From IMG/VR virus record IMGVR_UViG_3300026085_000093, positions 172,367-236,366 of that record: a DNA stretch of 64,000 bases, one strand, 5' to 3'. The stretch comes from a virus. Lineage: Duplodnaviria > Caudoviricetes. Positions 57,517-58,286 of this stretch are shown piece by piece (position 1 is the first letter of the stretch; each line of letters starts with the position of its first letter). Below the pieces are notes generated by a model. It was not told where the DNA came from, did no database searches, and saw nothing but the letters and a program-made list of their open reading frames with translations. The position numbers and the translations under genes were made by a program.

Positions 57517-58286
57517 GAATTATAGCAGGCCCATGTCAACACGAAACATTAGCACAAAGTTATGAAATTGCAAAAGAGTGCAAGCGTGTATGTGACAAAC
57601 TAGGCATTGATTATTATTTCAAAGCAAGTTTTGATAAGGCAAATCGAACAAGTGTAGATGGTAAACGTGGTGTTGGAATGGAAGCAACATTACTAGATTT
57701 TATCACACTAAAAGATAAGTTAAATGTAAAAACTCTTACTGATGTACATGATGTCATGCAAATTAAGGCTATTACAAATCAATTTAACAATGCAGTAGAT
57801 GTTTTACAAATTCCGGCATTTTTATGCAGACAAACAGATTTAATTCAAGCGGCTTGTATGACTGACAAAATTGTTAATATTAAAAAGGGACAATTTTTAG
57901 CGCCTTGGGATGTCAAAGGCATACTAAGTAAAACTGCTAGTGCTAAAGAAGTATGGATAACTGAAAGAGGAACAAGTTTTGGATATAACACCCTTGTTGT
58001 TGATTACAGCGGTCTTGATTGGATGCTCAATAATCTTTCTGTGCCTATCGTGCTGGATTGTACTCACGCTGCCCAAAAACCCGGGGGACAAGGGACTAGC
58101 AGTGGCGGCAATCGTGATCTTGTTCCTGGGTTCAGCCGTAGCGGGGCTGCTCTTGGGATATCAAATTTCTTCCTCGAAGTACACAAACTGCCTGATAACG
58201 CACCAAGCGATGGTCCGAATATGCTTCGACTAGATGATTTTGAGGAGGTAGTATATGACATCGTACGCTATTCTTATACCCGCTAG
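57513..58286 (+). CDS. kdsA: 3-deoxy-D-manno-octulosonate 8-phosphate synthase
   Basis: IIAGPC, FKASFDKANRTS, LTDVH, QIPAFLCRQTDL, NIKKGQFL.P, ERG.SFGY, D.THA.QKPG, FLEVH..P.NA.SDG. Confidence 0.93.
   Translation: MRIIAGPCQHETLAQSYEIAKECKRVCDKLGIDYYFKASFDKANRTSVDGKRGVGMEATLLDFITLKDKLNVKTLTDVHDVMQIKAITNQFNNAVDVLQIPAFLCRQTDLIQAACMTDKIVNIKKGQFLAPWDVKGILSKTASAKEVWITERGTSFGYNTLVVDYSGLDWMLNNLSVPIVLDCTHAAQKPGGQGTSSGGNRDLVPGFSRSGAALGISNFFLEVHKLPDNAPSDGPNMLRLDDFEEVVYDIVRYSYTR
57979..58233 (+). CDS. Candidate overprinted 84-aa two-TM membrane protein (+1 frame of kdsA)
   Basis: Two hydrophobic helices joined by PKNPGDK; GAGGA 7 nt before TTG; coincides with a roughly 52% GC patch lacking A-ending kdsA codons. 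Confidence 0.55.
   Translation: MDITPLLLITAVLIGCSIIFLCLSCWIVLTLPKNPGDKGLAVAAIVILFLGSAVAGLLLGYQISSSKYTNCLITHQAMVRICFD

Follow-up and report, generated by a model that had tools for sequence, protein, structure and literature searches.

A probable membrane protein gene nested in the kdsA gene of a marine jumbo phage, and its descendants outside kdsA

Can the 3' half of a phage kdsA gene, while encoding its share of an apparently complete KDO-8-phosphate synthase, also specify a second protein in another reading frame? The question is raised by the final 64 kb of a 236-kb IMG/VR virus record (IMGVR_UViG_3300026085_000093, positions 172,367 to 236,366; GC 35-36%), a stretch of 64,000 nucleotides that was analysed as a whole and is termed here the window. 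An earlier note, made from the letters of this stretch, had described an 84-codon open reading frame (ORF) in the +1 frame of kdsA as an overprinted gene for a protein with two transmembrane (TM) segments, and had offered as the alternative a horizontally replaced segment of kdsA. We find it very probable, from comparison of related sequences, that the 3' half of kdsA does carry a second true protein-coding gene. The comparison shows that both frames are under selection and that the two-helix hydrophobic design of the nested product is conserved, and it identifies the start site of the nested gene. Features of the locus are collected in Table 1.

Conservation of the +1 frame and its imprint on kdsA codons

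The ORF lies exactly where the earlier note had placed it (57979-58233, TTG start, 84 aa, +1 relative to kdsA). Synonymous resampling of the window sequence by itself predicts about seven stops in the +1 frame, with a probability below 0.0005 of finding none. Even so, the case from the window sequence alone is only moderate, and ORFs of this nested, hydrophobic kind occur often in this AT-rich genome; relatives were fetched for these reasons. A first round of 78 viral kdsA loci (71-86% protein identity) was combined with a second set anchored on a gene neighbouring kdsA, not on kdsA itself; the two amount to 114 loci, among which 88 viral kdsA sequences are distinct (68-87% KdsA identity). In 78/78 first-round relatives the +1 frame stays open over 64-105 codons, the +2 frame over just 3-43. 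Every one of the 88 distinct sequences contains a +1 ORF of 58-84 aa (length classes 58, 60, 65, 73 and 84 aa), the hydrophobic character of which is lost in only one. Over kdsA codons 157-216 the +1 frame contains 0.05 stops on average versus 5.1 expected from synonymous resampling, 95% of relatives having none, and the hydropathy of the product is 1.27 versus 0.45 ± 0.32 under the same null model.

Conservation extends to the start site, where the KdsA motif Glu-Arg-Gly-Thr-Ser-Phe-Gly is invariant. The Phe156 codon is TTT, and the +1 codon consequently TTG, in 88/88 distinct sequences. The GAGGA that had been noted 7 nt before the TTG is present at 57967-57971, and a Shine-Dalgarno motif (GAGG, GGGG, AGGA or GGAG) stands 7-8 nt before the TTG in all 88. 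Arg152, which contributes to this motif, is encoded by AGA, AGG or CGA in 64/64 sequences and by CGT in none, CGT being dominant at Arg25, 45, 52, 201 and 209; AGG accounts for 26 of the 64 codons at Arg152 and is rare at other positions. The use of a weak TTG start is explained by the mother protein, since ATG is impossible at this site as long as the Phe-Gly of KdsA is kept.

The nested frame is also imprinted on the codon usage of kdsA. The rise in GC that had been reported as about 29% to about 52% was measured as 0.289 over 57721-57900 and 0.517 over 58021-58200. Third-position GC (GC3) of kdsA increases from 0.15-0.25 to 0.40-0.45 in the overlap, A being lost while T at third positions (T3) is high or rising; the GC rise thus results from the loss of third-position A and not from a general gain in GC. 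Each third base of kdsA is the second base of a +1 codon, where A gives either a stop or a residue that is polar or charged, and T a hydrophobic residue. Six of the 60 kdsA codons 161-220 end in A, one more than previously counted, and four of them (58074, 58077, 58086 and 58089) do fall, as had been claimed, within the loop PKNPGDK between the two helices. The share of A at four-fold sites is 0.49 upstream (codons 1-156), 0.07-0.13 at approximately codons 157-180 and 193-228, and 0.23-0.27 between these segments, with values of 0.13 over helix 1 and 0.07-0.12 over helix 2. Because the third base of kdsA sets the class of the +1 residue, we read this dip and rebound as the footprint of a helix-loop-helix plan.

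Individual codons follow the same course. From outside the overlap to within it, GTA declines from 53% to 2-7%, GCA from 63% to 10%, and TTA plus CTA from 65% to 6-10%. GGA makes up 31% of glycine codons outside, 1-5% over the helices and 64% in the loop; GGG, which yields a glycine in the +1 frame, makes up 44% over helix 2 versus 4% outside. At single sites, A-ending codons are absent from Val162 (0/63), Val163 (0/64), Gly199 (0/64) and Arg201 (0/54), and prevail at the loop positions Gly191 (40/63) and Gly192 (41/64). Third-base entropy is nonetheless scarcely lowered (1.13 in the overlap versus 1.27 bits), which points to a constraint on the class of the +1 residue and not on the nucleotide, as fits a TM protein and not an RNA element.

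These data bear directly on the proposal that a segment of kdsA was swapped by recombination with a donor kdsA of higher GC, the open +1 frame being a by-product of composition. The local rise in GC from 0.29 to 0.52 fits such an event, and in cellular kdsA genes of high GC an alternative frame is often open over a long stretch. The pattern, however, is common to 88/88 distinct relatives, with third positions differing between sequences; T3 rises and only A is lost; the dip and rebound of A tracks the helix-loop-helix plan; and free-standing forms of the gene exist (see below). Nor does the patch cluster with any cellular kdsA: compared with 34 cellular KdsA, the C-terminal half has an amino-acid identity of 0.43 and the N-terminal half one of 0.45, and the longest DNA match is 24 nt. 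Given the presence of the trait in all 88 relatives and the rise in T3, a transferred high-GC patch is untenable, and we attach next to no credence to it.

Control genes indicate that the signature is particular to this clade. In seven kdsA genes from low-GC cells (Bacteroidota and Marinimicrobia; 40-45% identity) the +1 frame stays open for only 19-36 codons and A is not consistently depleted; nor is it depleted in two other viral kdsA groups, namely the clade of Synechococcus phage S-SCSM2R and LR756500, a record of 462 kb. The kdsA and kdsB genes of S-SCSM2R (L122:2980-4401) are convergent and overlap by about 39 nt, and the +1 frame of this kdsA is open for 65 codons without A depletion, from which it follows that openness by itself is not evidence for a nested gene. 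That kdsA is the older frame is indicated by its homologues outside the clade, which are without the nested-ORF signature. A pure composition artefact was rejected on the basis of the resampling together with the low-GC cellular and other viral kdsA controls.

A different cause for the bias would be RNA structure, tuning of translation speed over the active-site motifs of KdsA, or a gene on the opposite strand. The overlap region does encode the most conserved KdsA motifs, and the antisense frame that mirrors the kdsA codons contains 0.86 stops versus 4.1 under the null model. Cellular and other viral kdsA genes, however, encode the same motifs without the bias, and the antisense frame is interrupted by one or more stops in 66% of sequences, in contrast to a +1 frame that is free of stops in 95%; an antisense ORF was rejected on this ground, its partial opening being a by-product. 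Third-base identity is not conserved, contrary to what RNA structure would demand, and there is no relevant Rfam match over 57000-59000; the Rfam result and the scarcely lowered entropy led us to reject an RNA element. Free-standing forms keep just the +1 frame open. In one relative with a degenerate nested helix 2 (L060), moreover, the share of A-ending codons is back at 0.29, the bias having failed to persist. Causes of this kind appear highly improbable to us, and a nested membrane protein gene accounts for the codon pattern.

Free-standing descendants and points of doubt

A profile built from 40 nested products and run against 1.84 billion representative proteins retrieved 12 matches, comprising free-standing small genes, fragments and frameshift fusions with the N-terminal part of KdsA. 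Four lineages of free-standing genes (62-84 aa) were distinguished. The first, L140, is syntenic with the kdsA locus in the order helicase (82%), orf168 (64%), 86-aa gene (51%), small gene (62 aa) and orf155 (48%); the cupin gene, the first 156 codons of kdsA and kdsB have been deleted tightly around the small gene, and the kdsA frame is a relic with stops. L139 retains a relic of KdsA 157-217 (48% identity, E 4e-17), the first 156 codons being gone. A third type (L138 and L221-L223) contains a stop-broken relic of KdsA 153-209 (E 4e-6), and on a 19-kb phage contig its small gene adjoins PMM and a cytidylyltransferase. In the fourth (L224-L227) the kdsA frame has decayed beyond recognition and the small gene adjoins phoH; its 84-aa protein is 40% identical to that of the window over 83 residues (E 9e-17) and keeps both the loop, as KNPxD(K/R), and the stop position of the window protein.

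Every free-standing form for which DNA was fetched begins with ATG at the homologous position of the window's TTG, and has a Shine-Dalgarno sequence of its own, that of L224, GGAGAACAA, being a plain descendant of GAGGAACAA in the window. Only the +1 frame is open in each of the free-standing forms, both other sense frames containing stops. Nonsynonymous and synonymous polymorphism (pN/pS) within two lineages is 0.080/0.306 and 0.005/0.105 (ratios 0.05-0.26), and these descendants are under purifying selection. The closest embedded relatives are not the same from lineage to lineage (for the 84-aa form L003 and the window; for the others L035 at 61%, L034/L066, and L055), which implies that the small gene was left behind by the loss of kdsA on at least three separate occasions. 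The central claim of the earlier note, that the 3' half of kdsA is overprinted with a gene for a two-TM protein, is thereby borne out: frame, TTG and Shine-Dalgarno motif are kept in 88/88 sequences, and free-standing descendants exist.

The same forms help to judge whether the +1 frame is instead reached by programmed ribosomal frameshifting, with the N-terminal half of KdsA fused to a membrane anchor. A GTTTTG run does occur at the junction, and the database proteins P0121, P0123/P0140 and P0125 are fusions of this kind, although their junctions differ and resemble deletions or frameshift errors. Against such a mechanism, a +1 stop precedes the TTG by 10 codons in the window and at the same position in about half of the relatives, the Shine-Dalgarno motif and TTG are invariant, and the free-standing forms begin at exactly that codon, with ATG. 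Half of a TIM barrel, besides, is unlikely to fold. We therefore hold frameshifting to be very improbable and retain internal initiation at the TTG as the preferred explanation.

Among public metagenome gene calls, P0121, P0123/P0140, P0125, P0129 and P0131 join an N-terminal part of KdsA, through a frameshift or a deletion, to the nested ORF at differing junctions; such calls may come from kdsA pseudogenes on their way to a free-standing small gene, or from faulty assembly. When viral and metagenome contigs were scanned for exact matches to peptides of L140, L139 and P0130, no further copies turned up, and a scan of genome contigs yielded only three phage-like contigs in metagenome-assembled genomes (MAGs) and two distant cellular genes. 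The phage-like contigs, PBPT01000016.1 (335 kb) and PBPT01000082.1 (153 kb), with loci L088/L090, and CAXGOB010000078.1 (21 kb), with L082/L087, encode a phage-type kdsA (71-73%) with the nested ORF and are binned in a 'Ca. Neomarinimicrobiota' MAG and a Saprospiraceae MAG, each of which has its own cellular kdsA (41-44%). They are probably contigs of jumbo phages mis-binned into these MAGs.

Several considerations weigh against a second gene in kdsA and against the history proposed for it. The phage is uncultured, and the nested protein is known here from sequence alone; searches by family, fold and neighbourhood gave no clue to its function. The window genome has 328 nested ORFs of at least 55 aa, among which this one ranks seventh by hydropathy, and identity of the product to that of the window is low among relatives (23-87%). 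In the lineage of L060 (3467-3661) and P0131, kdsA is intact and the second helix of the nested product is polar, and relatives without kdsA at the locus are mostly without the small gene there too. The free-standing examples lie on short metagenomic contigs, and the number of events was derived from best BLAST hits of short proteins. The L060/P0131 lineage is a natural loss variant and serves as an internal control. Its degeneracy, together with the lack of the gene in most kdsA-less relatives, marks the nested gene as dispensable and accessory.

Locus and predicted product

The phage is a myovirus of the T4 superfamily, with genes for tail sheath, UvsX, a UvsW-like helicase and large terminase; the terminase is nearest those of PA5oct-like jumbo phages (52% identity), and one relative (G084) is a CheckV-complete contig of 357,559 bp. 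Homologues of kdsA number in the thousands, the cellular ones at 40-50% identity. The product has a full-length DAHP_synth_1/KdsA family match, and its C-terminal motifs HAAQKPGG, SSGGNR, EVH and SDGPN are invariant across the clade. A cupin gene and an 86-aa gene lie before kdsA, and a kdsB-like gene follows it. The stop of the nested ORF lies 21 nt 5' of the kdsB start, no more than two frames being used at any point over about 300 nt, and kdsA and kdsB overlap at 58255-58286.

Table 1. Coordinates of the kdsA locus and of the parts of the nested gene, in window positions
Feature	Position	Strand	Remarks
86-aa conserved gene 5' of kdsA	57256..57516	+	In L140 directly abuts the free-standing small gene
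kdsA (KDO-8-phosphate synthase, 257 aa; older 'mother' gene)	57513..58286	+	PF00793, E 2e-50, residues 2-245
Shine-Dalgarno-like GAGGA	57967..57971	+	From kdsA codons Arg152-Gly153; 7 nt before TTG
Nested +1-frame gene (probable), 84-aa two-helix membrane protein, TTG start	57979..58233 (stop included)	+	Wholly inside kdsA; from the ORF list
TTG start codon	57979..57981	+	Bases 2-3 of kdsA Phe156 and base 1 of Gly157
Helix 1, hydrophobic (residues 5-31)	57991..58071	+	Kyte-Doolittle 2.1-2.7 in 19-residue windows
Polar loop PKNPGDKG (residues 32-39)	58072..58095	+	Over kdsA motif AQKPGGQG; A-ending kdsA codons return
Helix 2, hydrophobic (residues 40-61)	58096..58161	+	Small-residue motif G..xxxxG.xxxG; Kyte-Doolittle up to 2.67
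Variable C-terminal tail (residues 62-84)	58162..58230	+	Absent from 58-65-aa variants
kdsB-like CMP-KDO synthetase (cytidylyltransferase) gene	58255..58929	+	PF02348, E 3e-20; starts 32 nt inside the end of kdsA

A scan for sigma-70-like promoters and terminators around kdsA gave nothing above shuffles, and no copy of the T4 late-promoter consensus TATAAATA was found near the gene. The 64 kb contain only two copies of TATAAATA (23461-23468 and 48000-48007) versus 8.7 expected by chance, each 4 nt before the start of a + strand gene (23473 and 48012), of which the gene starting at 48012 is the first of a block of sugar-nucleotide and glycosyltransferase genes. Other hydrophobic ORFs nested in the +1 frame of large genes on the same strand occur at 14746-14943, 52882-53049 and 6313-6546 (55-77 aa, Kyte-Doolittle 1.1-1.4), a type that is frequent in this genome. 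A second local rise in GC3, to 0.45-0.65, was seen at 60571-60780 within ORF 60151-60819, which matches a fragment of a PHROG 'DNA polymerase'; no long alternative-frame ORF occurs at 60571-60780, and this is hence not a second overprint of the same type.

The core of the nested product consists of a 4-residue N terminus with an Asp, helix 1 (5-31), an 8-residue loop and helix 2 (40-61). Lys and Arg are confined to the loop in the core, and to loop and tail in the protein as a whole. An AlphaFold model made with 40 sequences has helices at 3-30 and 35-77 (pLDDT 69). By the positive-inside rule the protein would sit in the host inner membrane with its loop in the cytoplasm. Enrichment of GGG at kdsA Gly206, 211 and 215 places glycines in helix 2 at a spacing of 5 and 4, a small-xxx-small arrangement that may mediate self-association.

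Searches for relatives of known function were uniformly negative. A Pfam scan (E <= 0.01) gave just a sub-threshold hit to DUF3792 (PF12670), at 17.7 bits versus a cut-off of 31.3, and no match to an Imm family; PHROGs gave no match to the nested product; the ESM Atlas returned only unnamed clusters (best score 0.87), which were not informative; Foldseek of the hairpin model against BFVD and PDB found nothing below E 0.6; and a word-based search of the 84-aa product against 5.8 billion protein clusters found no match. No report of a gene nested in kdsA was found in a search of the literature.

Because the small gene survives where kdsA and kdsB are gone, its product cannot be bound to working with the KDO enzymes of the phage. 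With regard to other roles, the earlier note had likened the product to class II holins or exclusion proteins, and the former comparison invites the explanation that it is the two-TM holin by which the phage times lysis. Its size, its two TM segments and the small-xxx-small motif of helix 2 are fitting, and overprinted lysis genes have precedent in phiX174 E and lambda Rz1. Neither a T4-type holin nor a common endolysin family, furthermore, was detected in the complete relative of 357 kb: PF00959, PF01464 and PF01510 were unmatched in G000 and G084, as was PF11031, which is uninformative because it was unmatched in all 14 control genomes also. Yet both comparisons made by the earlier note go no further than resemblance. 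There is no holin family match in Pfam or PHROGs and no dual start; 47 of 88 variants, being 58-65 aa long, end at or just past helix 2 without a hydrophilic tail; and no endolysin or spanin gene neighbours it in any of four genomic contexts, the neighbours being kdsB, the cupin gene and unknown genes in the window, and PMM/CTP-transferase, PhoH or orf155 at free-standing loci. The gene is also missing beside the kdsA-less locus of relatives and degenerate in L060, which would be unexpected of an essential lysis gene. A holin of class II is accordingly unlikely.

With low confidence, we regard the product as a dispensable membrane protein acting on the envelope or in exclusion, more exclusion-like than a canonical holin. 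An effect on the envelope, on injection or on superinfection is our tentative first choice; control of lysis timing, in the manner of a holin or antiholin, is a weaker candidate, and assistance to lipopolysaccharide or sugar metabolism at the membrane is doubtful. The balance falls to some other role.

Origin of the nested gene and comparison with known systems

We envisage that ribosomes start within the kdsA message at the invariant TTG (57979), guided by the purine-rich Shine-Dalgarno sequence that the Arg152-Gly153 codons of kdsA provide, and make a hairpin of 58-84 aa in which two hydrophobic helices flank a short, mildly positive loop. The gene would have originated as an overprint on a kdsA acquired from cells by a lineage of marine jumbo myoviruses; selection would keep the helix residues hydrophobic or small, acting on their class and not on the exact sequence; and the small gene would have outlived the deletion or decay of kdsA at least three times, a survival which implies that its job is independent of the KDO enzymes of the phage. 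We think it fairly likely that the clade preserves a full natural series of de novo birth, in which a gene was invented in a captured kdsA, tuned under double coding and freed at least three times with a change from TTG to ATG, founding a widespread family of phage membrane effectors, for exclusion, lysis timing or envelope control, that annotation pipelines do not see.

Overprinted genes are textbook material for tiny phages under size pressure; to our knowledge, very few have been described from jumbo phages or within auxiliary metabolic genes (AMGs). The comparative proof is unusually clean here, because the start is set by the Phe-Gly of the mother protein, the codons trace the helix-loop-helix plan and the daughter outlives the mother gene. 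The locus thereby offers a tractable model for the way new membrane proteins arise from T-rich alternative frames. It introduces a new orphan family of membrane proteins, common in ocean metagenomes, and warns that genes are overlooked when marine viromes are annotated with a focus on AMGs, the embedded form being essentially uncalled.

The mechanism of origin is of the same kind as that of phiX174 E in D and lambda Rz1 in Rz; the two-helix hairpin family is new. In these two systems, as here, a short same-strand +1 gene is contained entirely within an older gene, starts from an internal site of its own, goes unseen by gene callers and specifies a small membrane-targeted product, the hydrophobic segment of which is supplied by T-rich second codon positions. 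The differences are that the mother gene here is a metabolic kdsA of cellular origin in a jumbo phage of about 350 kb, where genome compaction is not pressing; that the product has two TM helices, E having one and Rz1 being a lipoprotein; and that the nested gene is dispensable, has a start codon forced by the mother protein and has left free-standing descendants.

Class II holins such as the S pinholin of phage 21 are likewise small, with two TM segments and spaced Gly or small residues in the second helix. The nested product differs from the pinholin in having no family match, dual start or lysis neighbourhood, in being mostly without a charged C-terminal tail, and in its predicted topology, with the loop inside and the N and C termini outside. 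The superinfection-immunity protein Imm of T4 has about 83 aa and two predicted TM segments. It resembles the nested product in size, in its two-TM plan and as a fast-evolving accessory membrane protein of a T4-superfamily phage, but no sequence similarity was detected between them and the imm gene is free-standing.

Viral genes that arose de novo by overprinting have been found to encode young products that evolve faster and are compositionally biased (Sabath et al. 2012, PMC3494269; Pavesi 2021, PMC8227390). The gene described here is, like those, a young frame inside an old one; it differs in that a later stage is visible, several lineages holding the young gene freed, with TTG changed to ATG, after the old gene was lost.

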